DNA from: Candidatus Moraniibacteriota bacterium
Lineage (GTDB): Bacteria > Patescibacteriota > Minisyncoccia > Moranbacterales > UBA1568
Reading direction: 5' to 3'
Length of the DNA stretch: 64,000 bases
Assembly (NCBI GenBank): GCA_052034935.1
Contig: JBPOIB010000003.1
Location: 34,407 to 98,406 of the forward strand
Part shown: positions 7,904-50,420 of the stretch, piece by piece
How positions within the stretch are numbered: position 1 is the first letter of the stretch
Layout: each line of letters begins with the position of its first letter
Notes under the pieces: generated by a model
Told to the model about the DNA's origin: nothing
Databases searched by the model: none
The model's input: the letters and a program-made list of their open reading frames with translations, nothing else
Made by a program: the position numbers and the translations under genes

Positions 7904-10762
7904 TTATCTTCGCCGTGCCGATTGAGGAACGTTTGGAATCAGAGCAAAGACAACTCCCGAAGAGAAGAGGATGAGGAAGACTGAGAAGAGGACCTTGAGC
8001 GAAAAGAGGACCGATGCGGGGAGGTAGCTCGCAAGCAAGGCGTAATATTTCTTGGCGCCAGACTGGGTGATATTTGATGTCTCTGGCTGTTCTATTTGGA
8101 TATTTGAATTAAAGTATACCTCCGTCGTATCGAGAGAGGATATCCCCCAGATATCGGTCATTGCCTGACGAATATCCGTACTGGGCCGATAGACCGCCGA
8201 TAATGAGACATTATACACCCCCTGGCCAGGCTTGCTGGCAGCGAAAGAGATCGTATTTGATGATTCATCTCCGACGTTAGAGCGTTCGACTGTCCAAGCT
8301 CGTGCCACTTTTGGCGGAGCCTCGTTCGAGAGAAAGTCTGGTGTGAACAAAACACGCAGCTGCACTGAATTCCCCTCATAGGTTTCAAGCGTGCTCTTGC
8401 TGAATTCAGTGTATGCAACACCTTTTGTATCAATGTATTGTCCAAGGACTTTCGGCCAGACATTGTTCTGGTCATTCGAAATGATTGTCACCGCAGGATC
8501 AACAATTTTGAATGATCGGGTTATGGTAACTGATTTTTCTGTTGAAACAACGTTGTCGAGCTTATTGGCCGTTACAGAGATTGTGAATACATCACCGACG
8601 CTTCCGACGATAGGGAAGAAGTTTATACTACTCTGTTTGTCGTCACTGCAGTTAAGAACTGATACCTTCGTATTACAGATGAGCGGCTGGCCGTTGATTG
8701 ACCAGCTGAAATTAGTAAGATCGTTGCCGGGCACTTGAAGGGCGATAATTTCATTCTTTACCACCCGACAAAGCTTCGCATCAAGGCGCTGAATCACCTG
8801 ATACTCCGGCGGATCAGCCGGATTCACAATCCCTGTGCAGATTTCATTCCCGGCGTTGATCGAGAGCTTGGCGGGACTACCAGCGACATTGACCGTATGC
8901 GCCAAAATCTTATCCTGGCTCGCATTGAACTTGACGATCGTATTGCTCCGGCCGCGCCGACTTGCTCCGGCCGCGCCGAAGTTTTCAACCGTATCGACAC
9001 GGAACCGAAGATAGCCAATATTATTCAGGAGGTAATTCGGGAAAGGAGTACCGCCGAACGTATCGGTACTCCGCATATTCATATTCATCGTCACTTTTGC
9101 GACACCATTCCCCTTGACCGGCGAGAGAAGTTTCCGATTATCCGGCAGGCTATTTACCGCGCTTGTGATATTTTCCCAACTCGGAGGGTTGGACGTACCG
9201 TCTGAGGAAAGCTCCACTCGCCACTCATAAAAGATCCCCTGCGTTCCCTGCGCGCCATTATTCACCGTTGCCGTTACCTCAAGGAGATCGCCATCCCCTC
9301 GGGTTGTGACATCATTGATGACATCTTCGGGCGAAGAAGATACCGTCAGTTCAAGATTGGTCGCCTGACCACCCTCGGTCGGATCGACAAGGTTCTTCTC
9401 CAGGCAATCATTCAAGTCCATCGAAATAGTTGGAAAGCTGATCTGATAGCCCTCAATCTGTTTGATATAGGTCCCCGTGCCACCTGCCTTCTCGCAAGTA
9501 TTCTTCGAAAAAGCCCACATGATCATGTTTGAAGAATCCTTGTGCTTCGTCGGAATCATCGAAGTTCCTTCGACCACGACACCAACCTTGTCTCCTGGGA
9601 TGTAGTTCCACTCGAAAGAATCCCTTCCGAGGCCGGCGACATTGGCTTCATCCTTTGCGCCATTATCCGCCGTCGACGGATCGGACGGATCAGTCTGCCA
9701 GAACTTCTCCTCATCCGCGCCATAGGTCCCGTCACCGACGGTAAAACCCGGAGCCTTGGGGAACAAGTGTTCACAGACCGGATTGGAGTCTCTGGCGCTG
9801 GAATAATCGCAGGTGAGCAACTCAACATCACAACTCCTCGCGGTTGCTGGATTCGCAACGCAACACGGGGTACCTGTCGCACATGCAGCAACCGGCGAAG
9901 GAAGCGAGGGGTCAGAGTTATCACAGTACGGCAGACCCGAGACATAGTCATCGCCCGGCGTCCACTCGAACGTGCTTCCGCTCACCCCGACTGAACCGCC
10001 ACCGACGTCTCCGCTTGCGACGCTACCGCCATCGGCACTGCCCGTAATAGTTCCAGCATCGATATTCGTGCTTGATTCCATGCAGACGGCATACGGAGTC
10101 GTGCCACCACATTCGTTCCAAGCGGTATTATTGATATTATTCACCAGTTCGTAATTTTCCCCATCCTCATTGTCATGATAGTAACAATGGTTCGGAACAT
10201 TGACCCGGTTATCACCACCGAAGCGAGCCTGATACCCGTCATTATCCGTATCCGCAGCATAACTCGCCACTGCGAAATCGAACCCCTTGCTCGCGAGCTC
10301 ACGATGGGCCGCAATCTTCCAGTCGTTCTCTCCGATAAGTCCATTACCATCCAAATCGCAGGACGGAATCGGGGGATTCCCCTTTTTGCACTCAGGATGC
10401 TGTAGATACCAGGTGAAGTAGAGTTTACCCACATCGCTTGAAAAGTACGTAGCGAAAGCTCGGGCCGTAATCCGTTCACCCTCTTTCGGGTCCGAGGGTG
10501 AAAAAAAGAGGGAAACTTCCGGAGTAACCTTTTTCGTATTGGCGACATTCATGTTTTCACCCTGATCCTGAACAGCTCCTGTATCGATATGGTAGCGTTG
10601 TTCAAGCTCCGAAGCCGACTGAGACGGAGTGGGGACGCTTGGAACTTTCGGAGCACTGAAAAGGCCGGCATTCGCCGGCATAACTGAAGTGAAGAGCAAC
10701 TGAAGACTCAGTATGATACGGCCGAAACGAAAAGCCTTTTTGTATTTTGGGGAGCTCGACAT
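7904..10762 (-). CDS. Large (952 aa) Cys-rich secreted surface protein with a C-terminal membrane anchor; last gene of the T4SS-like operon
   Basis: Signal peptide (RIILSLQLLFTSVMPANA), many Cys, and a C-terminal hydrophobic segment with a basic tail (LILFSSGVVFALIPNVPQSARRR). Confidence 0.6.
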   Translation of the reverse strand: MSSSPKYKKAFRFGRIILSLQLLFTSVMPANAGLFSAPKVPSVPTPSQSASELEQRYHIDTGAVQDQGENMNVANTKKVTPEVSLFFSPSDPKEGERITARAFATYFSSDVGKLYFTWYLQHPECKKGNPPIPSCDLDGNGLIGENDWKIAAHRELASKGFDFAVASYAADTDNDGYQARFGGDNRVNVPNHCYYHDNEDGENYELVNNINNTAWNECGGTTPYAVCMESSTNIDAGTITGSADGGSVASGDVGGGSVGVSGSTFEWTPGDDYVSGLPYCDNSDPSLPSPVAACATGTPCCVANPATARSCDVELLTCDYSSARDSNPVCEHLFPKAPGFTVGDGTYGADEEKFWQTDPSDPSTADNGAKDEANVAGLGRDSFEWNYIPGDKVGVVVEGTSMIPTKHKDSSNMIMWAFSKNTCEKAGGTGTYIKQIEGYQISFPTISMDLNDCLEKNLVDPTEGGQATNLELTVSSSPEDVINDVTTRGDGDLLEVTATVNNGAQGTQGIFYEWRVELSSDGTSNPPSWENITSAVNSLPDNRKLLSPVKGNGVAKVTMNMNMRSTDTFGGTPFPNYLLNNIGYLRFRVDTVENFGAAGASRRGRSNTIVKFNASQDKILAHTVNVAGSPAKLSINAGNEICTGIVNPADPPEYQVIQRLDAKLCRVVKNEIIALQVPGNDLTNFSWSINGQPLICNTKVSVLNCSDDKQSSINFFPIVGSVGDVFTISVTANKLDNVVSTEKSVTITRSFKIVDPAVTIISNDQNNVWPKVLGQYIDTKGVAYTEFSKSTLETYEGNSVQLRVLFTPDFLSNEAPPKVARAWTVERSNVGDESSNTISFAASKPGQGVYNVSLSAVYRPSTDIRQAMTDIWGISSLDTTEVYFNSNIQIEQPETSNITQSGAKKYYALLASYLPASVLFSLKVLFSVFLILFSSGVVFALIPNVPQSARRR
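8943..8979. repeat. 18-bp perfect direct repeat, two copies with a 19-bp period, inside the 952-aa CDS
   Basis: ttgctccggccgcgccga at 8943-8960 and again at 8962-8979. Confidence 0.8.
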
Positions 10763-10764
10763 AG

Positions 10765-11427
10765 TTATCGAAAAATCAACACGACGGCATCAGTAAGAAA
10801 ATAGAAGAACCACGAAGCCCCATAACTGAAGAGGATCGAACGGGACTGATAGGCGATAAGTCCAGCAAAGGGAGCGAAGAGCATCGCTGGTATCGTCTCG
10901 GCAGACACGCCATCACCCAGGTAGACAAGGAGGAAGAACAGGCCCGTCTGGAAAAGCACCGACCACACCCCCCAGCTCCGGAGCCAGAGGAGCATGATAA
11001 AACCCCGGAAAAAGACCTCATACAATAGTGTGATGAACCCATTGACGAGAATCTGGTAGAGGACAAAGAAAAGAAATTTTTCTTCAACAGCCCTGGGAAG
11101 CTGATAGTCCTTGAGCAGCGGGGTAAAGTTCCAAAGAACGAGGAGCGCTGCCAGGGCAACGATAAGAGCGAGAACACTCCCACCAATACCGGCCCAAATA
11201 TTTCCCTTGTGGAAACCGATAGCCGACAAGGGTCGACCTAGCATTATTTTACAATAGAGGAGAGGAATAACCAAGAATACCCCACTGTACGTAATGAAGC
11301 TCCGGACAAGCGGGTCGACATCACCGTAGTCACCGAGATAGAGAAGGAGAATCAAAGAGCTCAGGACGACAGTTGTTGTCCCGATGAACTCTTTGTAGTG
11401 AGCGAGGAAAACGAGTAATTTATTCAT
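10765..11427 (-). CDS. CPBP-family (CAAX protease-like) intramembrane metalloprotease
   Basis: Polytopic membrane protein with the EVFFRG motif (E-E-x-x-x-R-like). Confidence 0.5.
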   Translation of the reverse strand: MNKLLVFLAHYKEFIGTTTVVLSSLILLLYLGDYGDVDPLVRSFITYSGVFLVIPLLYCKIMLGRPLSAIGFHKGNIWAGIGGSVLALIVALAALLVLWNFTPLLKDYQLPRAVEEKFLFFVLYQILVNGFITLLYEVFFRGFIMLLWLRSWGVWSVLFQTGLFFLLVYLGDGVSAETIPAMLFAPFAGLIAYQSRSILFSYGASWFFYFLTDAVVLIFR

Positions 11428-11534: not shown

Positions 11535-12050
11535 CTACGCCTGGGCTACCCCCTGGTTTACACTGACTGAACCAGGCCCAAGAGCCCGACCAATTCGCCT
11601 CCGGACAGCCTGCTGCCCCTTTTGAGCCATTTCAAGAGACATGGCTGACTCGTTTGCATCTTTCTTCGCCAGATAGTATGCAAAGAGGACACTTATTGTA
11701 TTAAATGGAGCCAGCCCAATATAGGGAATGAGGTCTAGGAGGGTAATAAAAAAGAAGGCTATCCGGAGCCAGATACGTCCCCGTCCCCACATGAAGATAA
11801 AAAGGTAGGTCGCTATGAAGGAGCTGAAAAACATCCCGAAAACCCAGCCAACTATCGGAAAAGCGGCAAGAATATCAATCATAAAATCATCAGCCAGGGC
11901 CAGGGTCAAAGGAAACAAGAAAACAGAAAAATCTCCGTCTTTTATCCTCTTTCTGTGCTCGATGGCTGTGCGGACAGCGCTTCGGACGGCTGCCCCCCGA
12001 TTGTTCATTACCCCCGTCCGAGCTGCTGTGGCAAGGTCTGAAAAGGCCAT
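11535..12050 (-). CDS. Hypothetical small polytopic membrane protein
   Basis: Three or four predicted TM helices; no recognisable domain. Confidence 0.4.
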   Translation of the reverse strand: MAFSDLATAARTGVMNNRGAAVRSAVRTAIEHRKRIKDGDFSVFLFPLTLALADDFMIDILAAFPIVGWVFGMFFSSFIATYLFIFMWGRGRIWLRIAFFFITLLDLIPYIGLAPFNTISVLFAYYLAKKDANESAMSLEMAQKGQQAVRRRIGRALGPGSVSVNQGVAQA

Positions 12051-12059
12051 ACAGTACGA

Positions 12060-14435
12060 TTATGGGTTCTGGGCATCGAATTCGCGCTTCGCCTCCTCGA
12101 TCTCGAGGAGTTGGCGCGGATCCGACGTGATGATCTGGTCTTCGCTATACGAAGCGATTACCTTGATAGCGGCATGTTTGGTTCCAGCGAAGAATATCCC
12201 CTCACCAACATTCGATTCGAGAAGCAAGAACTTCTCATGGTCAGTCAGATAGAAGGTCTCCGTGATGTAGTCGATTGAAGCGGGTGATTGACGGAGGAGG
12301 AGCTGCATCGATGAGTTCGTGATAATCGGCTTACCGTAGCGCGACGACATGAAGTCACTGATGTCCTGCGTGATAGTTGTCAGGCCCGTATAGTATTTGC
12401 GACAGCGCTTCGCGATACCGAACAGGAAAGAGGCGGCGTCCTCGTTCTGCATCATGATCCATGCCTCATCAACAACGATAATCCGCTGCCGCAGCTTAGA
12501 TCGGATATCGTTCCAGATATACTGCAGGATGATATACATCGCCACCGGGCGAAGTTCTTCTTCCAAATCCCGGATATTGAAGACGACGAGCTGATTTTCC
12601 GTATCGATATTCGTCTGTTGATTGAGGAATCCCGAGAAAATACCTTCCGTGTATCGCTGGAGTCTGGCGGCGATGGAATCCGCCCCTTCCATGTTCTGAA
12701 GCACTGCATAGAGGTCAGACATGGTCGGAAATGAGTTGGCTGTGAGCGTGCTAAAGCGCGAGTCTTCATGAATATCGCGGATAGCGTACGCCTCCCGGAT
12801 CGCCTGATCAAGAATCGAATCTTCCTCAGGAGACAACGTGCCGAGCATGAGATGGAGCAAACCGATCAGGTTGGCGATCGTATTCCGATACACGCCATTG
12901 CTCTCATCATCCGTGGTCACCTTCGGCATATCGAACGGATTGAGGTGCACATCGGAATTCAGCGACACCTTCAGGAACGCCCCGCCGACCGTCTCACACA
13001 GATGTTTGTATTCGTTCTCGGGATCAATAATGATGACGTTCGATTCGAACATAAGGGCACGCAGCACTTCCAGCTTGACCGTATAGCTCTTACCAGCACC
13101 CGACTTCGCGAAGACGACCATGTTCGCATTCTCCATCTTGAAACGGTCAAAGAGAATGAGCGAGTTATTATGCCGGTTGATCCCATAGAGGATGCCTTCA
13201 TTCGAAGACAGGTCGGAAGAGACGAACGGAAATGTCGTCGAAAGCGGCTCGGTATTCAGGTTATTTGCAACATCCAGCGCATCGTTCGCCAAAGGGCGGG
13301 TCGAAGCAAAACCAGCATCCATTCGGAGCACCGCCGGCTTCGTATACACCAACTGTGCCTCGAGTATTGCTTCAATCGACTGGACTTTTTGAGCCAGGTC
13401 TTTTTCATCTGATCCGTACAGCATCATATAGAGACCAAAGCGGAAAAACTTTTCGGTCCCCTGCTGGAGCCGGTCCCGCAGTTCCTCGATATTTTGGAGA
13501 GCCGCCTCAAGCATAGGATCGCGGATCTTTCCCTCTTCAATCTCGATATTCATCTGCGACTGGACCTGAGTCGCCGACTTCCGGAGCTGCTTCAATATCT
13601 CGGCGGTTTCAATCGGGTGAATGAAGAGCGCCGTGTCCATCGGAAAATCAAGGTTGATGATTGGAGAAAACCAGTTCGTCGAAAGAAATCGCGGATAGGC
13701 GACAACAAACAGCGTCCGTGCGACGACATCGCCGATTTGCATCGTCGCTGGCGTGACTCGGATTGCGGGCGGAGCGATCAAATCCTTGATTGTCGCCAGC
13801 CCTCTCTGGTAGAGCACCTCCGTATCAACGCTCTCATCAGTAACTGCCGTTTTTTTCTTCCCGAACAGTCCAGAAAAAAAACTTTTCTTCGGCTTCGGAG
13901 CAGGTTCGACCGGCGCAGGGACGGGGGTGGGAGCGAGCTTCTTCTCGGCACGTTCTTCTTTCGTCGGCATGGCGAGAGGCAAACCGAATGGCTTTTTCAC
14001 CGGCGCTTCAGCGGCTGATTTTTCTGATGTTTCCGCAACTGCCTCCTTCTCCGGATTATTCTTGGCATCAGCCGGTTTACTTTTTCCAGAGCCTTTGGCT
14101 TTCCCGGTTATTTTCTGCAGCCAGCCCTTCTTCTCCTCAACTGCTGAAACCTCCAGTATTTTCCCCGTTTTAGGCGGGCGGGCGTCGCCCCGGAGGGTCT
14201 GATTCAGAAGCTCGGAAGCTCGGCCGACTGGAGCAATCCAGTCGCTTTCCTCGTCCGGATCAGCCAGCACCCGCTTCTTTGCTGCGCCCGCTGGCCGAGA
14301 AGCCGGCTCAGGACTGCCTGTCTGATCTCCGTCCGAAACGGACATTTTTGCGAGGCTGGAGGCGTCGAGAAGCGAAGGGTCTACCACAGAAACCTTTTTA
14401 GCTGGCCGATCAAAAATAACGCGATTGGTTCCCAT
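12060..14435 (-). CDS. VirB4/TrbE-family T4SS ATPase, C-terminal segment with a disordered K/P/A/E-rich N-terminal linker
   Basis: Walker A VVFAKSGAGKSYTVK; Walker B IIVVDEAW; Gram-positive VirB4 middle-region motifs. The first 200 aa or so are low complexity. The ATG lies one codon after the in-frame TGA that ends the upstream ORF. Confidence 0.85.
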   Translation of the reverse strand: MGTNRVIFDRPAKKVSVVDPSLLDASSLAKMSVSDGDQTGSPEPASRPAGAAKKRVLADPDEESDWIAPVGRASELLNQTLRGDARPPKTGKILEVSAVEEKKGWLQKITGKAKGSGKSKPADAKNNPEKEAVAETSEKSAAEAPVKKPFGLPLAMPTKEERAEKKLAPTPVPAPVEPAPKPKKSFFSGLFGKKKTAVTDESVDTEVLYQRGLATIKDLIAPPAIRVTPATMQIGDVVARTLFVVAYPRFLSTNWFSPIINLDFPMDTALFIHPIETAEILKQLRKSATQVQSQMNIEIEEGKIRDPMLEAALQNIEELRDRLQQGTEKFFRFGLYMMLYGSDEKDLAQKVQSIEAILEAQLVYTKPAVLRMDAGFASTRPLANDALDVANNLNTEPLSTTFPFVSSDLSSNEGILYGINRHNNSLILFDRFKMENANMVVFAKSGAGKSYTVKLEVLRALMFESNVIIIDPENEYKHLCETVGGAFLKVSLNSDVHLNPFDMPKVTTDDESNGVYRNTIANLIGLLHLMLGTLSPEEDSILDQAIREAYAIRDIHEDSRFSTLTANSFPTMSDLYAVLQNMEGADSIAARLQRYTEGIFSGFLNQQTNIDTENQLVVFNIRDLEEELRPVAMYIILQYIWNDIRSKLRQRIIVVDEAWIMMQNEDAASFLFGIAKRCRKYYTGLTTITQDISDFMSSRYGKPIITNSSMQLLLRQSPASIDYITETFYLTDHEKFLLLESNVGEGIFFAGTKHAAIKVIASYSEDQIITSDPRQLLEIEEAKREFDAQNP

Positions 14436-14438
14436 ATA

Positions 14439-15116
14439 TCAGGATTGGAGTTCAATGCCTTCGATATTCCGGACGACACTCGCTGCGAACATCGACGGAT
14501 TATAGCTATTATAAAGCAGTTCGATCAGCTCTTCGGTTCCGAGCGTGGTAGCCCGGATACCCATTGGAGAAAGGCCGGCCGTCACGTGCTCCACCCGCTG
14601 CATGAGCTGCGTCCGATAGGTATCGAAAAGATCCTCTTTGAGACCGACCGTTTTCTTCGGATGGAAGATATCGCCGATTTTTCCAAAAAACCCACCCTTG
14701 GTATTCTCAACTGGGGAAAATGGGATGACCACGTAGAAAAACTTCGACATGATATTCGATATCTCAGTCAGGTTCTTGATGAAACCCTGGTATTCTTTCA
14801 TTTGAAAACGGAGTAGCTCATTTGGTTGCTGCACCTCTTTTTCTCGCAGAAGCTCAATATACGGGTCGATATTGAAACGTCGCGACTGAATCACTACTTG
14901 GACCGGGAAGTCGAGCGAGTTGAGAAAGTTCTGGTACTGACTAATGATTGAATCCTGTTCTTCACTCGACTTAAGGTCGAAATTGATAGAGGAGACCAAA
15001 AGCACCGCCCGGAGCGCCCCGTTCTTGAGGACCAATGCACCGTCACGAATCTCTTCCACATTGACGTAACGCTGGGTGCTTGATCCGCTCGATTGTTTCT
15101 TGGAGAGGAGTTCCAT
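14439..15116 (-). CDS. VirB4 N-terminal domain-like protein, in frame with the downstream VirB4 segment and separated from it by one TGA
   Basis: Motifs resembling VirB4 N-termini of Gram-positive T4SSs: LLVSSINFDLKSSEEQDSIISQYQNFLNSLDFPVQVVIQSRRFNIDPY. Confidence 0.5.
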   Translation of the reverse strand: MELLSKKQSSGSSTQRYVNVEEIRDGALVLKNGALRAVLLVSSINFDLKSSEEQDSIISQYQNFLNSLDFPVQVVIQSRRFNIDPYIELLREKEVQQPNELLRFQMKEYQGFIKNLTEISNIMSKFFYVVIPFSPVENTKGGFFGKIGDIFHPKKTVGLKEDLFDTYRTQLMQRVEHVTAGLSPMGIRATTLGTEELIELLYNSYNPSMFAASVVRNIEGIELQS

Positions 15117-15124
15117 AGGAGCGT

Positions 15125-15517
15125 TTACTTACTATCAAGAATACGAGCGAGACGCGAAAGCTCCTCAGGGCTGATCCGCTTTTCTGCCTTTGCTGGTTTT
15201 GGCGGCTCAACGGGGACCGCTATTTTTTTCGGCCGAGCGACCGGCCGTTCCCAGACAGCCACCTTTGGTCGGAAAAAATAGACGATGCCATGGAAAAAGA
15301 ACGAGACCAGTGGCTGACCTTGCGGCCGATAGAATGCGAGAGCGGAAAAGAGAAGTACAATCGGCACGCCAGTCACAAAAAAGCCGATCAGGCCAATCGT
15401 GTTATAGATGATGAGCAGCGTCACGCCCATCCCCATCATCCAGAGGAGTTGGCGCCACGTCAGGGGACCGGCGATTTTGTCTTCGACATCGATAAATTGC
15501 GGGACACTGAACATCAT
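15125..15517 (-). CDS. PrgI/VirB3-like small membrane protein
   Basis: VPQFIDVEDKIAGPLTWRQLL, then two TM helices; about 130 aa; directly upstream of VirB4. Confidence 0.55.
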   Translation of the reverse strand: MMFSVPQFIDVEDKIAGPLTWRQLLWMMGMGVTLLIIYNTIGLIGFFVTGVPIVLLFSALAFYRPQGQPLVSFFFHGIVYFFRPKVAVWERPVARPKKIAVPVEPPKPAKAEKRISPEELSRLARILDSK

Positions 15518-15610: not shown

Positions 15611-16828
15611 TTATGCCGATGGCCGATCATCGTTCCTGAGACGAAGCGGCCGAATCGTGTACGGACTCTTCGGAAGGCTCGCACCCGGTTCACGTTTGAT
15701 GCCCTGAGACGGATGCTGCACCGACTGATTCACGGGAGCCGGTGGCGCCATCGGCGCAACTGGTGGAACGGTCTTTTCCGAAGCTTTCTCAGCGGGAAGC
15801 ACATGTCCGGTTGAAAAATGGAGTGTTTCACCAGAAATATTCTTTTCCGGCGGAGTTGTTTTTGAGAAAAGCGGCTTGAGATTGGCGAGTACCGGTGTTG
15901 CTGGTGTTGGCTTCGGCGGCATCACACCAGACGGCCGAATCGCCGGAGCTGGAGCCATCCCTGGAGCGAATGCTGCTGGACGGACAGTACCGACCGGCAT
16001 CGCGCGCGGCTGAATGAAACGATTCGCCACCGGGCGAGCATTCGTATTCACCTGGGTCAATTCCATCGAAGCATCGCTCCCGGCCGGAAAAATGATTGCT
16101 TCACGCTTCGGATCGATATCGAGCGGGAATCCCTCTTCGATCGACTTCAGGATAAGGTTCAGCTTGGCTCGGTCGTCGTTGGTCAACTTCTTCCCATTCT
16201 GGGACTGAAAGAGGAACCCACCGCGCTTTACCGGTTCATGGAAACCGATACCGAGTTCTTCCCGGTAGGAGCGAATCCAATTCGAGAGCGTCGGCCGGAC
16301 CAATTCCGTCGAATTTCGAAGCTTGATCTTCTCGCTCGTGATCAGCTGATCCGTCACATGTTTGTAGTCACTCATCGCCTTCAAAAGGGGCAGTTTGACA
16401 GTTGCAGGTCTTTCCTCTCGTGGAATATATATTTCCTCTTCAATCACAGGTTCCGGCGCGGGAACAATCGTCATGATTTCTTTCTGAATTGCTTCAACAA
16501 TTGCCTTCGCCTGATCTGGACTCCCACCCTCACTAGACTTCAATGCCGAAGCAATTTTCGTTTCTGCTTCGTCGAAATTTAGGTCACCAAAAAATATTTT
16601 TCGTACAGCGAGACTCACTATCGCTACTCCAACTTCTTGAAGCTGAAAGCGCTTTTCGAAGTCCTGCATCTTCTCAACGACTTCACTTGAGACAAGAATG
16701 TCTTTCTTTTTGGTATCAAGAGTCCGAAACTTCACCCACATCTGAAATTCTTCCTCTACAGAATCGGCATCTGTAAAAACAAGCATTGGATAGTAAGCGT
16801 CACTCAGTTTTACTGCGCTGGTTGACAT
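15611..16828 (-). CDS. Hypothetical T4SS-associated protein, 405 aa, soluble, with a Pro-rich C-terminus
   Basis: No TM; the C-terminal third is Pro/Ala-rich; lies between VirB6-like and VirB3-like genes. Confidence 0.4.
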   Translation of the reverse strand: MSTSAVKLSDAYYPMLVFTDADSVEEEFQMWVKFRTLDTKKKDILVSSEVVEKMQDFEKRFQLQEVGVAIVSLAVRKIFFGDLNFDEAETKIASALKSSEGGSPDQAKAIVEAIQKEIMTIVPAPEPVIEEEIYIPREERPATVKLPLLKAMSDYKHVTDQLITSEKIKLRNSTELVRPTLSNWIRSYREELGIGFHEPVKRGGFLFQSQNGKKLTNDDRAKLNLILKSIEEGFPLDIDPKREAIIFPAGSDASMELTQVNTNARPVANRFIQPRAMPVGTVRPAAFAPGMAPAPAIRPSGVMPPKPTPATPVLANLKPLFSKTTPPEKNISGETLHFSTGHVLPAEKASEKTVPPVAPMAPPAPVNQSVQHPSQGIKREPGASLPKSPYTIRPLRLRNDDRPSA

Positions 16829-16846: not shown

Positions 16847-19150
16847 CTATGGATTTTGCTGGCCGGTCCCGTTTTGTCCGGCATTACTTGACGGCTGATT
16901 GAAGGCGGCTTGCGCATTTTGCCAAGCCTGTGACCGCTGAGCAGTTTGCTGGGTCTGTGTTCCAACAGAATCTTTAATCTCAAGCAACACTTTCATATCT
17001 TCGGGCTTTAGCTCATCTGACCTGAGCACTTTATCAAATGCATCCTTCTGGTTCTTCGCCATCTCTTCAAAATAAGCGCGCGCCTCTGGATCCGTACCAT
17101 TCGCCTGGGCACTTTGAATGAGCCCACTCTGTTTCGATAGATCCTTACTGCCCATTTTTAGAACATCCTTATAGACCTGCGCTACCGGGATTGGTCCGGT
17201 TCCTGAAGTCATTCTCCGAGCAATTTCTGCTTGAATTCTATACTCGGCCTTATTCTCCTTCTTGAGCGCTCCACTGTAAGCCTGCTGTAAATCAGTTTGG
17301 CGAGAACCATAAACCGATACATCCTTTCCGTCCTTATCTTTCTTAGTCTCGCCCAACATGCCAATGATCTTAGCATTAGTCGTACTATCCATCGATCCGA
17401 CCGCCGACGGTTTTGCCTTATCAAGAACCTGGTTAAATTCATCAGCATTCCCCTTCACTGCATCAAGTGAATCTGCCAACTGATTGGCCGTTCGAATTTC
17501 TCCCATCTGAGCCAAAGAAAGAGCAGCTACTCGCTTATCAAAATCGGATGACTTACCATCTTTTAGAGTTTCAAAGTGTTTCGTTGCTGTCACACCCTTA
17601 TCGATATTCTCCTTTACTGCCTTACGGGCACGATCGGTCTCGAGACTTCTGAGTTCCGCATCCGCACCTTCCTTCGCTGTAGACCATCCGCCTTCCCTCT
17701 GGACTCGGCCTTTACCGGCCGCAAACCTATCTTCAATCGCTTCCTTTCGGCCTTTGGCCGTCATAAACTTCGGAATATTTTTCCCAAATACTTTTCCACC
17801 GTCCGTAAACGATTCTTTCACGCCAGCCAATTCACCCCTCAATCGGTCATATGGCAACACCATGCGAGCCGTGCCGCCAGCAACGCTCTTCGCCGTGTTT
17901 CCGGCGAATTTGGCGGTATTGACGACTTTTGTCTTGGTATAATTTCCGATCGCCCGCGGCAAAGCATAACCGAGGCCGACGACGACCGAGGCGCCAACCA
18001 AACTCGATCTGCTTGCCATGCCGATGGTGAACCAGATCATGATGATCGGGATACAGAAGAAAACCACCTGAGCGAGAAAAGTTGCAGAAGCCGCATCCGG
18101 CGACTGGCCGCTCGAGTAGTCTCCGAGGCTCTTCCAAATGCCGCTCCCGGCAACGCCAGCCATGAATTTGATGCTGATCATCAGCATCAGTGCCGCCGAA
18201 GGTCCGAAAAGCGCGTATTTCCAAAAATACTCCCACCATTCGCGTCCGAATTTATCGAGACCCGGGAGGAGCGAGGCAGCAAAACCGATCGGGGAAAAGA
18301 TGAGCAGCATCGTGAGCGCGATCAGCCGGATGATCATCATGAGCGCGAGGACGAACAATGAGATGCTGAAGAGAAAAACGAAGATGATGCCCATGATGAG
18401 CGGTGCCATATCCCCTTCCTGAACATTGGTAAAGGCGGTCGCTCCGGTTCCCGAATAAGCGAACATCGACTGCATAGCGATCATCCCACCGGAACTTTTT
18501 CCGTCCCCGAGCACATCATTGATGAAGTAATACATCGGCACATTGGCGGCATCAATGAGGAAACGCGTGATTGGAAAGCTGAAATTGATGAAAAGCGCCA
18601 CGAGGAGAATATTCTTGAAGATATTCCGGATATTGAAACTGTCGACTTGGAAAATAGTAGCGAACGCGGAAAAAAGAAGGATAAGGATGAAGAAAAGATT
18701 GAAAAAATCCCGGATGAACTGCCAGAGGTTATAGACGGCGGGAAGATTCAATGTTCCACTAGTACCCGTCATCGTTGCCGGGTCGACCGTCCAAGCAAAA
18801 CCGGTCGCCGCTGGTATCATGACGAAGCGGAACAGGAAACTGAGAAACATCCCCAAAAGCTCGATGATGAGGTTTTTCAGGTGACAGCCAAATTCAAAAG
18901 TATCACAGGTACCTGGGGTAACAACCGGCGGAGCCGCCGGCGTTTGGCTCGTAGCACTGGCATCTTTTTTCCCGAGATCTTTGGTTTGTTCGTAAGGTCC
19001 AACACCTGCTGCATATGCTCCTTCAGGCGCCATTCCAGGATTATCTGCATGGACGTCAGCTACAAGGAAAAACCCACCCTGAACAAACAGTATCGCGAGA
19101 AGAATAAAACTGAGTCTCTTTTGTATTTTCTTTTTTTGCAACCACCCCAT
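16847..19150 (-). CDS. VirB6/TrbL-like polytopic T4SS membrane protein with a roughly 400-aa hydrophilic C-terminal extension
   Basis: Signal peptide, at least six TM helices, long charged C-terminal tail. The ORF track starts at GTG 19171; ATG 19150 gives a better signal peptide. Confidence 0.55.
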   Translation of the reverse strand: MGWLQKKKIQKRLSFILLAILFVQGGFFLVADVHADNPGMAPEGAYAAGVGPYEQTKDLGKKDASATSQTPAAPPVVTPGTCDTFEFGCHLKNLIIELLGMFLSFLFRFVMIPAATGFAWTVDPATMTGTSGTLNLPAVYNLWQFIRDFFNLFFILILLFSAFATIFQVDSFNIRNIFKNILLVALFINFSFPITRFLIDAANVPMYYFINDVLGDGKSSGGMIAMQSMFAYSGTGATAFTNVQEGDMAPLIMGIIFVFLFSISLFVLALMMIIRLIALTMLLIFSPIGFAASLLPGLDKFGREWWEYFWKYALFGPSAALMLMISIKFMAGVAGSGIWKSLGDYSSGQSPDAASATFLAQVVFFCIPIIMIWFTIGMASRSSLVGASVVVGLGYALPRAIGNYTKTKVVNTAKFAGNTAKSVAGGTARMVLPYDRLRGELAGVKESFTDGGKVFGKNIPKFMTAKGRKEAIEDRFAAGKGRVQREGGWSTAKEGADAELRSLETDRARKAVKENIDKGVTATKHFETLKDGKSSDFDKRVAALSLAQMGEIRTANQLADSLDAVKGNADEFNQVLDKAKPSAVGSMDSTTNAKIIGMLGETKKDKDGKDVSVYGSRQTDLQQAYSGALKKENKAEYRIQAEIARRMTSGTGPIPVAQVYKDVLKMGSKDLSKQSGLIQSAQANGTDPEARAYFEEMAKNQKDAFDKVLRSDELKPEDMKVLLEIKDSVGTQTQQTAQRSQAWQNAQAAFNQPSSNAGQNGTGQQNP

Positions 19151-19302
19151 AAAAAGCAAGATATAGCGCACTCAGTCAATATGAGAAATTATATCACAAG
19201 AAACATCATTTTCCGTAAAGAAAAACCTCCTTTATCTGAAAGAGGTTTCTTATTAGCTGCACTTGCTTCCGTAGCTGTTCAGACCCAATTGTCTTCGCGA
19301 GT

Positions 19303-20709
19303 CTAATACACGTACCCTTTGATGACGCGGCTGTTTCGCGACAACTGGCGAACACTCTTTTTCGCCCAACCGGTATAGTTCATCTCAGAAACCGTAATCG
19401 TATCCTTCGTTACCTTTTCGACATAGGCGACATGGCCATAATAGCGATCTTCAGTCGTGACAACGATTGATCCGACCGTCGGAGTCTTACCGGTCTTATA
19501 GCCGTAGGCACGGGCATTGTAGAGCCAGGTTCCCGCATTGCCACCCCAGGGAACATAGCGTTTCTGAGCCACGAACCAGGTACAGTAGCCGTAGGGGAAG
19601 CGATGGCCTTGGCTGATTTTCCCCTCCTTTGGTCGCGAGAAGCTCGGCGTGATGTCGGTGGCCGCTCCGCCGCTGGTCTGAGATGCATACTCGCGCCGCG
19701 CGAGCCCGGTCGAGTCTTGGCTCTGCGGGGGGAGCTCCTTCACTCCGCCCGGGATAACAATCTCCTCGCCGTCCGTCAGCTTCCCGTTCGCCGGCAATCC
19801 GTTGAAAGAAATAATCTGGCTTCGATCAGCCTTATACTTGGTGGCAATTGCATCGAGCGTATCCCCCGCCTGGACCTTATAGTTGAATCCACTCACCGGA
19901 GGGACGAAGATCTGGTCCCCCGGCTTGATGGAGTCGACATTATCAAGGACATTCGCCCAAAGAATCGTATTGACGGTCACACCGTTGGCGGCAGCGATGC
20001 CGGAAACCGTATCACCCAGCTGGACCGTGTAGAGCTTCACACCCCCGTCTTCTTCGGGCTCGCGAGCCCGCTGTGCGCTCATGGCACTAGTCAGGAACAT
20101 CTGATTTTCAGGCGACAGATACGCCTCTTCAAGCACGTCCGTGTCTGTTTTTGCCGAAAGATCGGCCGGTGTCGGGGCAGTGGCAAGAGAAACGAGCGAG
20201 AGGTTATGCCGCTTGGACTCCTGCGCGGCTCGGCGAGGCACGATTCGTCGCTCGGAAGACGAATCTATACCGAAGAAGCTGAGCAAGCGCTCTCGGCCGC
20301 CGGTCTCTTGAGCGTAATTAGTGATGGAAACAAGCGCCGCCGCTGAAATGACCAAGGAAAAAGCGGCATATTTTCGAAAAAGAATCACCGGGACATACCC
20401 CGAACGCTCTTTAAACCAGATAAGGAATTTGGTCTGCCACTGATGAAACGTGGTATTCCATTGCGTAAAATCAACCAGCTTTCTGGTTTTAGACCACCAT
20501 TTCTTCCCGCCTGATGAAAAGTTCAAAGAGATACCTGCACCCTTTCTTTTGGGAATATCGCTAGTTTCCGCCGTGGCAAGCCAGGACCAAAACATCGCTG
20601 AATTCCCCCAAGAGTTACAGAAGGCAGCATAACCAAAAAGCCCGCTTTGGTCAATCTGATTTTCGCTCTTTTTCTTGGATTTTCCCTTATTTGAGCTAAA
20701 AAGTTCCAA
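19303..20709 (-). CDS. Peptidoglycan hydrolase: N-terminal membrane anchor, two LysM domains, C-terminal CHAP domain (VirB1/PrgK analogue)
   Basis: LysM: YTVQLGDTVSGIAAANGVTVNTILWAN and YKVQAGDTLDAIATKY. CHAP: Cys and His in GYCTWFV...YGHVAYVE. Confidence 0.8.
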   Translation of the reverse strand: MELFSSNKGKSKKKSENQIDQSGLFGYAAFCNSWGNSAMFWSWLATAETSDIPKRKGAGISLNFSSGGKKWWSKTRKLVDFTQWNTTFHQWQTKFLIWFKERSGYVPVILFRKYAAFSLVISAAALVSITNYAQETGGRERLLSFFGIDSSSERRIVPRRAAQESKRHNLSLVSLATAPTPADLSAKTDTDVLEEAYLSPENQMFLTSAMSAQRAREPEEDGGVKLYTVQLGDTVSGIAAANGVTVNTILWANVLDNVDSIKPGDQIFVPPVSGFNYKVQAGDTLDAIATKYKADRSQIISFNGLPANGKLTDGEEIVIPGGVKELPPQSQDSTGLARREYASQTSGGAATDITPSFSRPKEGKISQGHRFPYGYCTWFVAQKRYVPWGGNAGTWLYNARAYGYKTGKTPTVGSIVVTTEDRYYGHVAYVEKVTKDTITVSEMNYTGWAKKSVRQLSRNSRVIKGYVY

Positions 20710-20770: not shown

Positions 20771-21781
20771 ATGGAAATCATTGCTACAATTCACTTATGT
20801 CGCATAATGTTTATGATTTTCTTTGACCCGCCGAAAAATGAAATTGAACGTCTCGCGAAAGAGTTCTCTGAGCACCTCGAGATTGAAATGAGCCGATCGC
20901 CCCGGACGCTTTCAAGCTATTCCCAGGCCTTGGCGGCTTTTTTCACTTGGGGGGAAATCGAGAGGCCGACTGATATGACGAGCGAGAAAATTCGGCAATA
21001 CCGTCTTTTCCTCAATCGTAAAGTCACTCGCCAGAATACAACCCTGAAACGCAGCACCCAGGCCTATCACGCGATTGTGCTCCGGACCTTCCTCAAATAC
21101 CTCTCCAAGCATGATGTCGTTGCCCTCGCCCCGGAAAAAATCGAGATCGGTCGCGTCCCGGAACGCCAGGTCGATTTTCTGGAATATGATGAGGTGGAAC
21201 GGCTGCTCGCTGGACCAATGGGCGATACGGTACGTGCTAAACGCGACCGCGCCATCCTCGAACTCCTCTTTTCCGCCGGACTCCGCGTTTCCGAGCTAAC
21301 CGGTCTCGATCGCGACCAGGTCAATCTCGGCAAAGACGAATTCAGCGTCCGTGGAAAGGGGTCAAAACTCCGCATTGTTTTCCTCTCCCCCTCCGCCAAA
21401 GAGGCGATTGAGGACTATCTCAAATATCGTACTGATATCGACCCTGCTCTTTTCGTTTCGCATCCGAAAAAAGGCCTGGTGAATAAGAAAAATGCCGGGC
21501 GCGATACGCTTCGCCTTACGCCCCGGACCGTCGAACGCCTCGTGAAACACTACGCGAAGAAGGCCGGCATCCTGAAAGATGTGCATCCGCACACGCTTCG
21601 ACACAGTTTTGCCACCGATCTGCTCCAAAACGGTGCCGACATCCGCTCCGTTCAAGCGATGCTCGGGCACGCCTCAATCACGACGACCCAGATCTATACG
21701 CACGTCACGAACGAACGGCTGAAAGAAATCCATCAGACTTTTCATGCGAAGCAGTCACGGAAAAAGAAAAACGACAACTAG
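20771..21781 (+). CDS. Tyrosine site-specific recombinase (XerC/XerD-like integrase)
   Basis: C-terminal HTLRHSFATDLLQNGADIRSVQAMLGHASITTTQIYTHV; the catalytic R..H..R..Y pattern is consistent. Confidence 0.85.
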   Translation: MEIIATIHLCRIMFMIFFDPPKNEIERLAKEFSEHLEIEMSRSPRTLSSYSQALAAFFTWGEIERPTDMTSEKIRQYRLFLNRKVTRQNTTLKRSTQAYHAIVLRTFLKYLSKHDVVALAPEKIEIGRVPERQVDFLEYDEVERLLAGPMGDTVRAKRDRAILELLFSAGLRVSELTGLDRDQVNLGKDEFSVRGKGSKLRIVFLSPSAKEAIEDYLKYRTDIDPALFVSHPKKGLVNKKNAGRDTLRLTPRTVERLVKHYAKKAGILKDVHPHTLRHSFATDLLQNGADIRSVQAMLGHASITTTQIYTHVTNERLKEIHQTFHAKQSRKKKNDN

Positions 21782-47886: not shown

Positions 47887-48873
47887 CTAGATGTCGAGTG
47901 GTATATTTTCAACCCCGAGCGCGGAAAGATTCGATTGAGTCTCTTTGATGAAACTATCAAGACTTAGGAGGAATCCCTGAAGCTTTGAAAATGAATACAT
48001 CTGGCCGAGCGGATCTTGTGGGCTGACGGAAGTCTTCACCACCTGTTTCAGGTTCGCCGCAAATGTCACCATCTGAAGTGCTTTTACATGCGTTCCAAGC
48101 ATGCTTTCCGGGACCTCAACTTTATTAATTTCTTCCAAAGCCTTTTTTCCACGATCTTCGATAGAGTCAAGAAAGGAATAGTTCCCCGACATCATCCCCA
48201 TTATCATTTTGTTCCCCGAATCAACCAGAAAATTTTGAAGTGATGTTGTGTCTCGAATCTGCACCGGAGCGTTTGAGATGAGAATATAACTTACGAGGGT
48301 CAAGTACTCAATTGCATCTTCCCGAGACTGTTCCTTCTTTTCTTCTTCGGGTAAAACTTCAGCTACCAACTTCACCTTTATATCATCTGTTTTGACTTCG
48401 GGAAGAACTACTTCCTCAGTCCCCTTCGACATCACCTCAGCGATTGCTGTATCCAAATCAGCCGAAGTAATTTCCGGTGTTTCTCCGGACTCAATTTTCT
48501 TATCGAGAATCTCGCCAAACTCCTGACTCGCAATCTCCGTCAAATTCACTTCTGGCTCAACGCCCGGCTCTACAGCGACCGGTTCCTCTGGAATAATACG
48601 ATCGCCAGGTGCTGGTTTGAGTGGATCAAAACCACCTTTAATTTCAACTCCATCACTGTAACTATCTGCATCAGTATCCGCCACGTTCGGATCGGTACCG
48701 TATACTTTTTCTTCATCATTTGAAAGACCATCCCCATCAGCATCATCAAAAACTAAAGAGTCCATTGTAGAGGCTTCATCAGCCACTACATACATGGCGC
48801 TGCTGAAGAGAAAAAGGAAGGCAAAAACGAAAATGCTCCAGCGTAAATTATTTTTTGTTTGTGATATTCCCAT
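47887..48873 (-). CDS. Secreted protein with thrombospondin-type-3/dockerin-like Ca-binding D-x-D repeats
   Basis: Signal peptide; DADGDGLSNDEEKVYGTDPNVADTDADSYSDGVE. Confidence 0.45.
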   Translation of the reverse strand: MGISQTKNNLRWSIFVFAFLFLFSSAMYVVADEASTMDSLVFDDADGDGLSNDEEKVYGTDPNVADTDADSYSDGVEIKGGFDPLKPAPGDRIIPEEPVAVEPGVEPEVNLTEIASQEFGEILDKKIESGETPEITSADLDTAIAEVMSKGTEEVVLPEVKTDDIKVKLVAEVLPEEEKKEQSREDAIEYLTLVSYILISNAPVQIRDTTSLQNFLVDSGNKMIMGMMSGNYSFLDSIEDRGKKALEEINKVEVPESMLGTHVKALQMVTFAANLKQVVKTSVSPQDPLGQMYSFSKLQGFLLSLDSFIKETQSNLSALGVENIPLDI

Positions 48874-49109
48874 ATGAAAAAGTATATCACATCAAACCCT
48901 TTTTTTGTTCAATGTTTCGACACAGCCTCTCAATAAACATTGTCAGTTAATAGATATTTTTTGCCAATTAAATAACCTTCTCATTCATTAAATGACGGAT
49001 GACACAATTAATACAAACGCAAGTAAAATAATATTTTTAAACAACAACTCTTTCTTTCTAGAACTATTTCTAAAAAGTTAGCGAATCTTAATAACACTAA
49101 CCATTTTTC

Positions 49110-50420
49110 CTAAATAATTTTATACAATGTTTTATTATTATTGTCAATATAATAGTATATCAATAGAAGCGCTGTCAAGAAAAGGTACATTCCTTGTTGA
49201 ATATCCCAAAAAAAATGGTCGGTCATTAAATATATGATTAGGAATATTAGAGTAATAAATAGTGAGTTTTTTGTTTCACGTGGAACAATAAGAGGGAATT
49301 TCAGGATACACGCTACTAATAAAAACAACAGAACAACGGGAACGATACCTAACTCTCTATAAATTATATATACGCTACTATGAACCGGCTCAAGCACCCA
49401 CCACTCTACAGGGCTACTGAGACTATCATAACTATATCTATATGTACCTAACCCACTCCCTAAAAAAGTCGCCTGACTAAAATTTGACTGATAGTTGAAC
49501 TGATCTATCCGTGTAGAGTATGATTGTTTAATATCTGATTGATAGAGAATAACTAAAGAAACAGTGATAACAGCGACAATGGCTATTAATATTTGTTTCA
49601 CGTGGAACAAATATTTTATTCTTTCTCCAAGGAAAATAATAAGAAACAGAAAGGCACCTGTTTTCGATCCCGTCAGTAATATAGCAACCCCTATTAAAAC
49701 AGTAGAAAAAAGTATGGCGATTTGTTTCACGTGAAACAAACTTTTATACGTGACTAGCAAAATATACGACAACAGACAGAATGCAGCCAAAACATTAGGG
49801 TGAGGGAATGTTCCATAGCCTCTCAAAATTTTAAAACCAAGTATCTCAGATTTCGCTACATTCAGTGTCTCTGTTGATATTTTTGATTCATTCAACCAAT
49901 ACAGTCCGGCTGAATGATTATTCATGATCTGATAACCAGAAATAGCCACCTGCAACAAAATACTAATCACAACAACCTTGAATACATCTTTCAAAAAAGA
50001 TGTTCCACGTGAAACAATAAGTACTTTCGTTAAAAATATAAACAATAGCGCTAAAGAAGCATGCCAGATGAAAATCAGCGAAAGTATAGGATCAATTGAT
50101 TGAGCCGTATTTAAAGCCAAGTAAGCTACCGCTAATAGGGGAAGTAATTGTTCCACGTGGAACCAGTTTTTTAGTCTGTTCTTAATGTTTTTATTAATTG
50201 ACTTTATTACTTTTATATTGTTTAATATATATAAAACAAACATGAAGACAAGAATCACCTCTCCAAGATAAAGTGACACATCCATGTATTCATTGAACGG
50301 TCCGCCAGCCATCCCACGACTTTCAGTCAATATAAAGCGCCAGGAGAAGGGGAACTGCCAAAGGAATGCGAGGTACAGAATCACATCGCCATCCTGAAAT
50401 AATCGCTTTATCACAGTCAT
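49110..50420 (-). CDS. O-antigen ligase / Wzy_C-family polytopic membrane protein (AT-rich gene)
   Basis: About 12 TM helices; LLTGSKTGAFLFLI motif. Local GC is far below the window average. Confidence 0.6.
   Translation of the reverse strand: MTVIKRLFQDGDVILYLAFLWQFPFSWRFILTESRGMAGGPFNEYMDVSLYLGEVILVFMFVLYILNNIKVIKSINKNIKNRLKNWFHVEQLLPLLAVAYLALNTAQSIDPILSLIFIWHASLALLFIFLTKVLIVSRGTSFLKDVFKVVVISILLQVAISGYQIMNNHSAGLYWLNESKISTETLNVAKSEILGFKILRGYGTFPHPNVLAAFCLLSYILLVTYKSLFHVKQIAILFSTVLIGVAILLTGSKTGAFLFLIIFLGERIKYLFHVKQILIAIVAVITVSLVILYQSDIKQSYSTRIDQFNYQSNFSQATFLGSGLGTYRYSYDSLSSPVEWWVLEPVHSSVYIIYRELGIVPVVLLFLLVACILKFPLIVPRETKNSLFITLIFLIIYLMTDHFFWDIQQGMYLFLTALLLIYYYIDNNNKTLYKII
49271..50165. repeat. 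Five copies of an 18-bp palindrome, TTGTTYCACGTGRAACAA, inside the ligase-like CDS
   Basis: Copies at 49271-49288, 49593-49610, 49722-49739, 50001-50018 and 50148-50165. They are translated in two different frames (LFHV(K/E)Q three times, V(S/P)R(G/E)T twice). Confidence 0.85.

Follow-up and report, generated by a model that had tools for sequence, protein, structure and literature searches.

TrsD is a component of type IV secretion systems (T4SSs) that is remotely homologous to the N-terminus of VirB4 (PMC12102498). Outside Patescibacteria, TrsD is confined to the pGO1 subclass of monoderm T4SSs, whereas in Patescibacteria it is the most abundant T4SS component, with 2272 homologues, 1664 of them adjoining virB4 (PMC12102498). 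Quinonero-Coronel et al. (2025, PMC12102498), citing Wang et al. (2023), list it as essential in Ca. Southlakia epibionticum; Guglielmini et al. (2014) do not use the word TrsD in their main text. In pSK41 (pGO1/pSK41, MPF-FATA), a VirB3-like gene (trsC) is followed by trsD (227 aa) and trsE (672 aa, DUF87/VirB4). The same order, PrgI-family gene, open reading frame (ORF) 1 and ORF2, was found in the window, a 64,000-nucleotide (nt) stretch of DNA from Candidatus Moraniibacteriota (assembly GCA_052034935.1, contig JBPOIB010000003.1, positions 34,407 to 98,406), in which ORF1 and ORF2 share a frame and are separated by an in-frame TGA. We consider it very probable that ORF1 and ORF2 are real genes, each translated on its own, in a chromosomal T4SS of Candidatus Moranbacteria (Patescibacteria, or candidate phyla radiation [CPR]), with ORF1 encoding a TrsD-like protein and ORF2 the rest of VirB4. 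The arrangement was known beforehand from trsD-trsE of pGO1/pSK41 and from the 2025 survey of Patescibacteria T4SSs (PMC12102498), and the window is one instance of the published Patescibacteria TrsD + VirB4 arrangement.

ORF1 and ORF2 together match a full VirB4

ORF1 (15116..14439, minus strand) encodes 225 aa, and its stop codon was read from the sequence as TGA at 14441..14439. A single TAT codon (14438..14436, minus strand) forms a 3-nt spacer, after which ORF2 (14435..12060, minus strand; 791 aa) begins with an ATG at 14435..14433 in the same frame as ORF1.

In profile searches, ORF1 matched positions 96-233 of 894 of the NCBIfam VirB4_plasma model (E 6.8e-11), positions 2-111 of 752 of the CD1110-family VirB4 model (NF045971; E 6.7e-6), and positions 27-98 of 201 of the TrsD/TraD model (NF041427; E 4.5e-7). 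Its gene context is also that of TrsD, for which a protein of about 200-230 aa is expected between a VirB3-like gene and a VirB4 without the first ~175-265 profile positions. For the identical protein, as for each of the 120 closest ORF1 homologues, the precomputed annotation gives PF26593 (TraC-like). ORF1 had no match in the local Pfam, an older release (model versions.6/.13 vs.7/.14) that does not contain PF26593. A sequence search of the PDB with the ORF1 family profile gave no meaningful match (best E 0.22). At the level of structure, the best PDB fold matches of an AlphaFold2 model of ORF1 were TrwK chains (the VirB4 of R388; Foldseek probability 0.98, TM score 0.44, 200 columns), which is consistent with the VirB4 N-domain fold, short of being conclusive.

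ORF2 residues 203-753 aligned with positions 175-730 of 752 of the CD1110-family VirB4 model (E 2.8e-107), and the score of 359.8 bits exceeded the curated NF045971 cut-off of 325, placing ORF2 in this family. The Pfam matches of ORF2 were P-loop_TraG (E 4.6e-30), AAA_10, and DUF87, and residues 407-770 matched the VirB4 C-terminal domain in PDB 4AG5 (E 1.9e-50) and TrwK (E 1.3e-9). A Walker A motif, GAGKS, occupies residues 446-450 and was invariant across 41 sequences. ORF2 is thus predicted to be a VirB4 ATPase that comprises the remaining N-domain and the P-loop ATPase domain. The first ~174 CD1110 profile positions are missing from ORF2, and these are exactly the positions given by ORF1. 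The pair is therefore colinear with the full VirB4 profile (ORF1 on 2-111, ORF2 on 175-730), and ORF1 is the counterpart of the part of a monoderm (CD1110-type) VirB4 that spans the first ~175 positions of the profile.

A preliminary description of this stretch had read the coordinates of both ORFs, the TGA end, the TAT and ATG codons, and the shared frame as they are given here. It had also proposed VirB4 N-domain similarity for ORF1 and the VirB4 middle and ATPase domains for the 791-aa ORF; the former was borne out by the VirB4_plasma and CD1110 matches, and the latter by the hidden Markov model alignment, with boundaries at 203-753.

The split is conserved in relatives

The ORF1 search returned 5116 homologues, and lengths were read for the best 120 (63-97% identity). 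All of these 120 were standalone proteins of 217-246 aa whose C-termini coincided within 0-4 residues, and the few with a named source came mostly from Candidatus Moranbacteria / Moraniibacteriota. Among representatives of 50%-identity clusters, ORF1 had 2477 matches, of which the best 150 (37-58% identity) were examined: 149 were standalone (161-443 aa), and one, P0379 (898 aa), was fused. The ORF2 homologues among the matches listed were 604-844 aa and never about 1000 aa.

The genomic arrangement was then compared in a locus scan with one genome per species (Candidatus Moranbacteria / Patescibacteria), which returned 80 loci, 78 of them with both genes analysable. The two ORFs were separate and adjacent in 78 of the 78 loci. 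The stop codon of ORF1 was TAA in 52 loci, TGA in 14, and TAG in 12, and the median gap to ORF2 was 11 nt, the extremes being -4 nt (an overlap in ATGA) and 492 nt. The frame of ORF2 relative to ORF1 was 0, +1, or +2 in 27, 28, and 23 loci, respectively (chi-square 0.54, 2 degrees of freedom, p about 0.76), and the frame relation is therefore random. A shared frame, expected a priori in one case in three, is not beyond chance, and in the window strain it is a coincidence, the one-in-three outcome of a short spacer. In the nearest relatives, with ORF1 94-95% identical, the stop was TAA, the gap measured 4 nt in L081 and 5 nt in L082-L084, and ORF2 was out of frame. The exact ORF1 sequence and an identical TGA-TAT-ATG junction recurred in two independently assembled runs (L085, SRR10961543; L086, SRR35566598).

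Invariant columns numbered 58 of 225 in ORF1 and about 300 of 791 in ORF2, and purifying selection on both halves is strong. With both halves highly conserved and always separate, the split is ancient and under selection. The two-gene state is conserved across hundreds of Patescibacteria genomes and is ancestral for the whole bacterial radiation.

An inserted gene was also seen at the junction. In the Moranbacteria genome L040, the TrsD-like gene and virB4 are separated by an intact 23S_rRNA_IVP-family gene (PF05635, E 8e-20) that encodes 121 aa and lies at 2130-2495, and the related genome L041 carries a degraded 248-nt remnant of it at the same position. The junction thus tolerates insertions.

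A variable low-complexity spacer lies at the TrsD/VirB4 boundary

The VirB4 body of ORF2 is preceded by an extension of about 200 residues. Residues 31-200 are composed of K (15%), A (14%), P (12%), E (9%), S (8%), and G (8%) and are poor in hydrophobic residues, confirming the K/P/A/E-rich composition ascribed earlier to this stretch. In an alignment with 13 long-form homologues, the ends of the extension were conserved and its middle was a hypervariable, indel-rich, K/A/P/E-rich low-complexity region. In the clade of the window, the extension has a conserved start, M-G/S-R-E/D-L-I-I-F-D-R-P-x-K-K-V-S-V-V-D-P (also given as MGxxRVIFDRPAKKVSVVDP or MGRELIIFDRP). In an AlphaFold2 model of full ORF2, residues 1-200 had almost no secondary structure (predicted local distance difference test [pLDDT] 31-44), which hints at a disordered extension; the whole ORF2 model was poor (pLDDT 50.7).

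Near the other end of the extension, a semi-conserved basic-hydrophobic motif, KKSFFSGLFGKKK, spans residues 183-195 (window 13851-13889, minus strand), and motifs of this type sit 10-25 residues ahead of the conserved VirB4 body. In short-form relatives, VirB4 itself starts with the basic-hydrophobic motif, e.g. MFFGKKK or MFGLDKNKK; such N-termini were found in L028, L029, L035, L053, L062, L064, L066-L068, L074, L076, L077, L079, and L080. The motif may resemble amphipathic membrane-targeting sequences, such as the MinD C-terminus.

The N-terminal motif is interrupted in one close relative. In L081 (GCA_041730415.1, JBGSBW010000007.1, about 4215-4220; 95% identical), a TAA lies inside the conserved VirB4 N-terminal motif, MGRDRVIFDRPA*KVSVVDP, and VirB4 was called from 55 nt past the stop of the TrsD-like gene, as a protein of 753 aa. 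Either this TAA is an assembly error, or the first ~15 residues of VirB4 are dispensable.

Across the 78 loci, the ORF2 segment ahead of the conserved body (DTExLYxxGLATIKDLIAPPAI) was 10-283 aa long, with a median of 30, and its lengths clustered near 12-35, 75-95, and 126-283 aa. A P/A/Q/T-rich C-terminal tail of 51-300 aa was present in 40 of the 150 representative TrsD-like proteins; P0250, P0257, P0268, P0283, and P0312 are among those that carry one. In the fused P0379, a spacer of about 95 aa sits at the same boundary. The spacer can thus be located at the VirB4 N-terminus, at the TrsD-like C-terminus, or inside a fused protein, and a variable low-complexity spacer at the TrsD/VirB4 boundary is a family trait that varies among lineages. 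The preliminary description had called the insertion unusual, which holds in comparison with a textbook VirB4 and does not hold within this family, where a variable spacer (10-283 aa) is common. Neither the variable low-complexity spacer nor its position relative to the gene break is mentioned in PMC12102498.

The low-complexity stretch would act as a flexible spacer of unconstrained length, and the two short conserved motifs may, speculatively, act in docking or membrane binding. It is conceivable that the ATPase subunit attaches to the membrane through the amphipathic motif and docks on the TrsD-like subunit through the N-terminal strand motif. That the spacer and the two motifs (MGRELIIFDRP and KKSFFSGLFGKKK) form a functional tether or membrane-binding module specific to Patescibacteria T4SSs is a tentative idea, and we regard it as rather unlikely.

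A proposed two-subunit VirB4 and the evidence that weighs against it

The TrsD-like protein and the ATPase subunit would associate through non-covalent contacts to form a VirB4-like protomer at the membrane, together with the PrgI/VirB3-like protein encoded just upstream. The 3-nt spacing may give termination-reinitiation coupling and roughly equimolar output of the two proteins.

Several observations weigh against this interpretation. The score of ORF1 against the TrsD/TraD model (29.9 bits) does not reach the curated cut-off of 200 bits, whereas pSK41 TrsD itself scores 227.6 bits; by the NCBI criterion, ORF1 is classed from its profile score as a remote relative of TrsD and not as a family member. 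The hhalign comparison of the ORF1 family profile with the single pSK41 TrsD sequence was also weak (E 0.009, probability 4.5%), and the link between ORF1 and TrsD therefore rests on the NCBIfam match, synteny, and the literature. The AlphaFold2 model of ORF1, built from 46 sequences, was of moderate confidence (pLDDT 64.6, predicted template modeling score 0.57), and its Foldseek E value against TrwK was 0.019. Translational coupling is deduced from the spacing only, in a genome in which Shine-Dalgarno motifs are rare, and it is not obligatory, because some relatives have gaps of 100-490 nt. Shine-Dalgarno-like 4-mers were found upstream of only 12 of 48 starts in the window, even with a lax pattern, and translation initiation in the source organism seems to be largely Shine-Dalgarno independent. 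As these motifs are rare in the genome, the absence of one at ORF2 is uninformative.

Alternative explanations of the junction

The preliminary description had left three options for the TGA: programmed readthrough, a genuine gene split, and a lesion or sequencing error. The comparison of fused and split orthologs that it proposed gave separate genes in 78 of the 78 loci. Whereas a sense codon shared uniformly by orthologs would have pointed to an assembly error, ORF1 ended in a stop codon in every one of these loci. Of the three options, the gene split, with genes that lie close together and are probably coupled, is strongly supported, being conserved and separate in relatives, and the other two are not retained for the reasons given below.

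The alternative that survives best lies outside these options and concerns the role of ORF1, which could be an independent TrsD-like accessory factor derived from a VirB4 N-domain. Such a factor would stand outside the VirB4 protomer with its own stoichiometry, for example as a VirB3/VirB6 or substrate adaptor. TrsD homologues of Gracilibacteria do not adjoin virB4 (PMC12102498), the ORFs of some relatives are set apart by 100-490 nt or by an inserted gene, and about a quarter of the representatives carry long C-terminal tails of their own, all of which would suit an independent protein. However, the genes adjoin each other in every locus analysed here and in 1664 of the 2272 published cases, the fused relative has the same domain order and a matching break point, and ORF2 is without exactly the profile positions that ORF1 supplies. 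We therefore consider an accessory factor improbable, although it is the most credible of the alternatives.

Programmed UGA readthrough or recoding, which would join ORF1 and ORF2 into one 1018-aa VirB4, is a good deal less probable still. The two ORFs are in frame with a single sense codon from the stop to the ATG, and TGA is generally the leakiest stop codon. The existence of the fused 898-aa P0379 also means that a fused protein is presumably functional. However, the frame is random in the 78 relatives, three stop codons are used, the gaps range from -4 to 492 nt, and the 94-95%-identical relatives are out of frame with TAA. A screen for a hairpin after the stop, including the SECIS-like (selenocysteine insertion sequence) element suggested in the preliminary description, found none: the 91 nt from the stop had a folding energy of -11.4 kcal/mol vs a mean of -18.3 (z = +2.37) and folded worse than 200 of 200 dinucleotide shuffles. 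No selenocysteine tRNA (tRNA-Sec) was found within the window, and an Rfam scan of the window returned tRNAs only and no recoding element. A U follows the stop codon, which in E. coli is the context with the strongest termination, and any leak-through would be incidental; in the window strain, incidental UGA leak-through could give traces of a fused protein. A programmed readthrough or selenocysteine site was rejected, as neither frame nor stop identity is conserved among relatives and no stimulatory RNA structure is present, and the readthrough option of the preliminary description is accordingly not supported.

A single virB4 could have been split into a pseudogene by an error of sequencing or assembly or by a nonsense mutation that recently inactivated it, and a single in-frame stop is the expected outcome of a point error or point mutation. 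However, the exact ORF1 sequence with TGA-TAT-ATG recurs in independent assemblies from different runs, and all of the 120 closest homologues terminate at the same place, within 0-4 residues. Moreover, ORF2 has its own conserved N-terminal motif right after its ATG, and purifying selection is strong on both halves. Given the identical junction in independent assemblies and the standalone close homologues, a lesion or sequencing error is excluded, and we attach almost no probability to it.

UGA has been reassigned in some Patescibacteria (Gracilibacteria, Absconditabacteria), and in the window TGA ends 8 of 57 long ORFs, fewer than either other stop codon. Nevertheless, it is hardly credible that TGA is a sense codon here, under the genetic code 4 or 25 of some CPR lineages, or that it specifies selenocysteine, because the other seven TGA-ended ORFs of the window reach the next stop within 4-58 codons and have no plausible extension, so that TGA is an ordinary stop here, and because TAA or TAG takes the place of this codon in relatives, neither a SECIS-like hairpin nor a tRNA-Sec was found in the window, and the window (GC about 51%) has long ORFs that are intact under table 11.

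Gene neighbourhood

The PrgI-family gene terminates 8 nt upstream of ORF1 (Table 1). The order PrgI, TrsD-like gene, and VirB4 is kept in relatives, and in L081-L086 the gene order is kept from the 774-791-aa protein to the 220-aa protein. The T4SS cluster is flanked by housekeeping genes (IF-2, a PolyA_pol/HD-family nucleotidyltransferase, UvrD, and KsgA) and tRNAs, indicating that it is a chromosomal Patescibacteria T4SS.

Table 1. Features of the T4SS cluster, in window coordinates
Feature	Position	Strand	Evidence or remark
LysM+CHAP cell-wall hydrolase, VirB1-like role	20709..19303	-	Pfam LysM E 7.7e-21, CHAP E 1.5e-18
774-aa protein	19171..16847	-	NCBIfam CD3337_EF1877 weak, E 1.6e-4, below cut-off
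405-aa protein, unknown	16828..15611	-	
PrgI-family (VirB3-like) protein	15517..15125	-	Pfam PrgI E 1.8e-9, 38.4 bits vs cut-off 27
ORF1, TrsD-like, predicted detached first part of the VirB4 N-terminal domain	14439..15116	-	precomputed Pfam label PF26593 TraC-like
Junction TGA-TAT-ATG	14433..14441	-	ORF1 stop, 3-nt spacer, ORF2 start
ORF2 residues 1-200, N-terminal extension	13836..14435	-	composition, alignment
ORF2 residues 201-791, predicted VirB4 body	12060..13835	-	remaining N-terminal domain and C-terminal P-loop ATPase domain
171-aa protein	12050..11535	-	
220-aa protein	11427..10765	-	
952-aa protein	10762..7904	-	

Two further features of the window were noted. A tyrosine recombinase gene (20771-21781, plus strand; Phage_integrase E 1.9e-42, SAM-like N-domains) is divergent to the LysM+CHAP gene, the farthest upstream of those assigned to the T4SS cluster, at a distance of 61 nt, and the recombinase could be XerC/D or a mobile-element integrase. 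At 48001-50000, the GC content falls to 0.375 vs about 0.45-0.55 over the remaining window. This dip overlaps the ORFs 47887..48873 and 49110..50420, just before tRNA-Ala and tRNA-Arg, and the low-GC segment may be foreign DNA.

Discussion

The locus carries a caution for annotation, as an in-frame stop between the halves of a known protein mimics recoding or a pseudogene. The T4SS of Patescibacteria matters in its own right, as epibiotic growth reportedly depends on it in the single system that was tested (PMC12102498). To the known arrangement, the present analysis adds that the VirB4 profile position of the break is shared across phyla, that fused forms occur occasionally, and that the spacer can lie on either side of the break. 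These data could guide construct design for structural work; they open no new question.

Among described systems, the TrsD-homologue and VirB4 pairs of Patescibacteria T4SSs are among the closest, belonging to the same phylum-level group and having the same arrangement and the same neighbours (PrgI/VirB3, VirB6-like, and cell-wall hydrolase) (PMC12102498). The pSK41 pair shares the break, as TrsE starts at CD1110 position 183 (to 730) and ORF2 at 175. However, the operon of pSK41 is carried on a conjugative plasmid and also encodes a relaxase and a coupling protein. The cluster in the window is chromosomal, and TrsE is without the long low-complexity N-terminal extension of ORF2.

A third pair was found on the Pontibacillus sp. 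ALD_SL1 plasmid NZ_CP062975.1, where a 274-aa protein is encoded upstream of a 621-aa CD1110-family VirB4 with an 11-nt overlap. The 274-aa protein matched the ORF1 family in hhalign (99.5% probability, E 1e-22, 198 columns), and the VirB4 covers CD1110 172-730, so that the break is as in ORF2. Unlike the window, this is a Bacillota replicon with no long spacer, and its upstream protein is annotated merely as hypothetical.

The single-chain monoderm VirB4 (CD1110, NF045971) and R388 TrwK (PDB 7O41/8RTB) are, in contrast, continuous chains of about 750-820 aa that have no spacer, whereas ORF1 and ORF2 encode two polypeptides with a spacer of about 165 aa. Even so, ORF1 and ORF2 are colinear with the single-chain CD1110 profile, and the C-domain of ORF2 matches 4AG5 and TrwK. 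In the fused P0379, VirB4_plasma positions 92-893 were matched in one stretch with the same domain order. Profile alignments thus place the gene break at one recurrent, predicted domain boundary in Patescibacteria, pSK41, and Pontibacillus.

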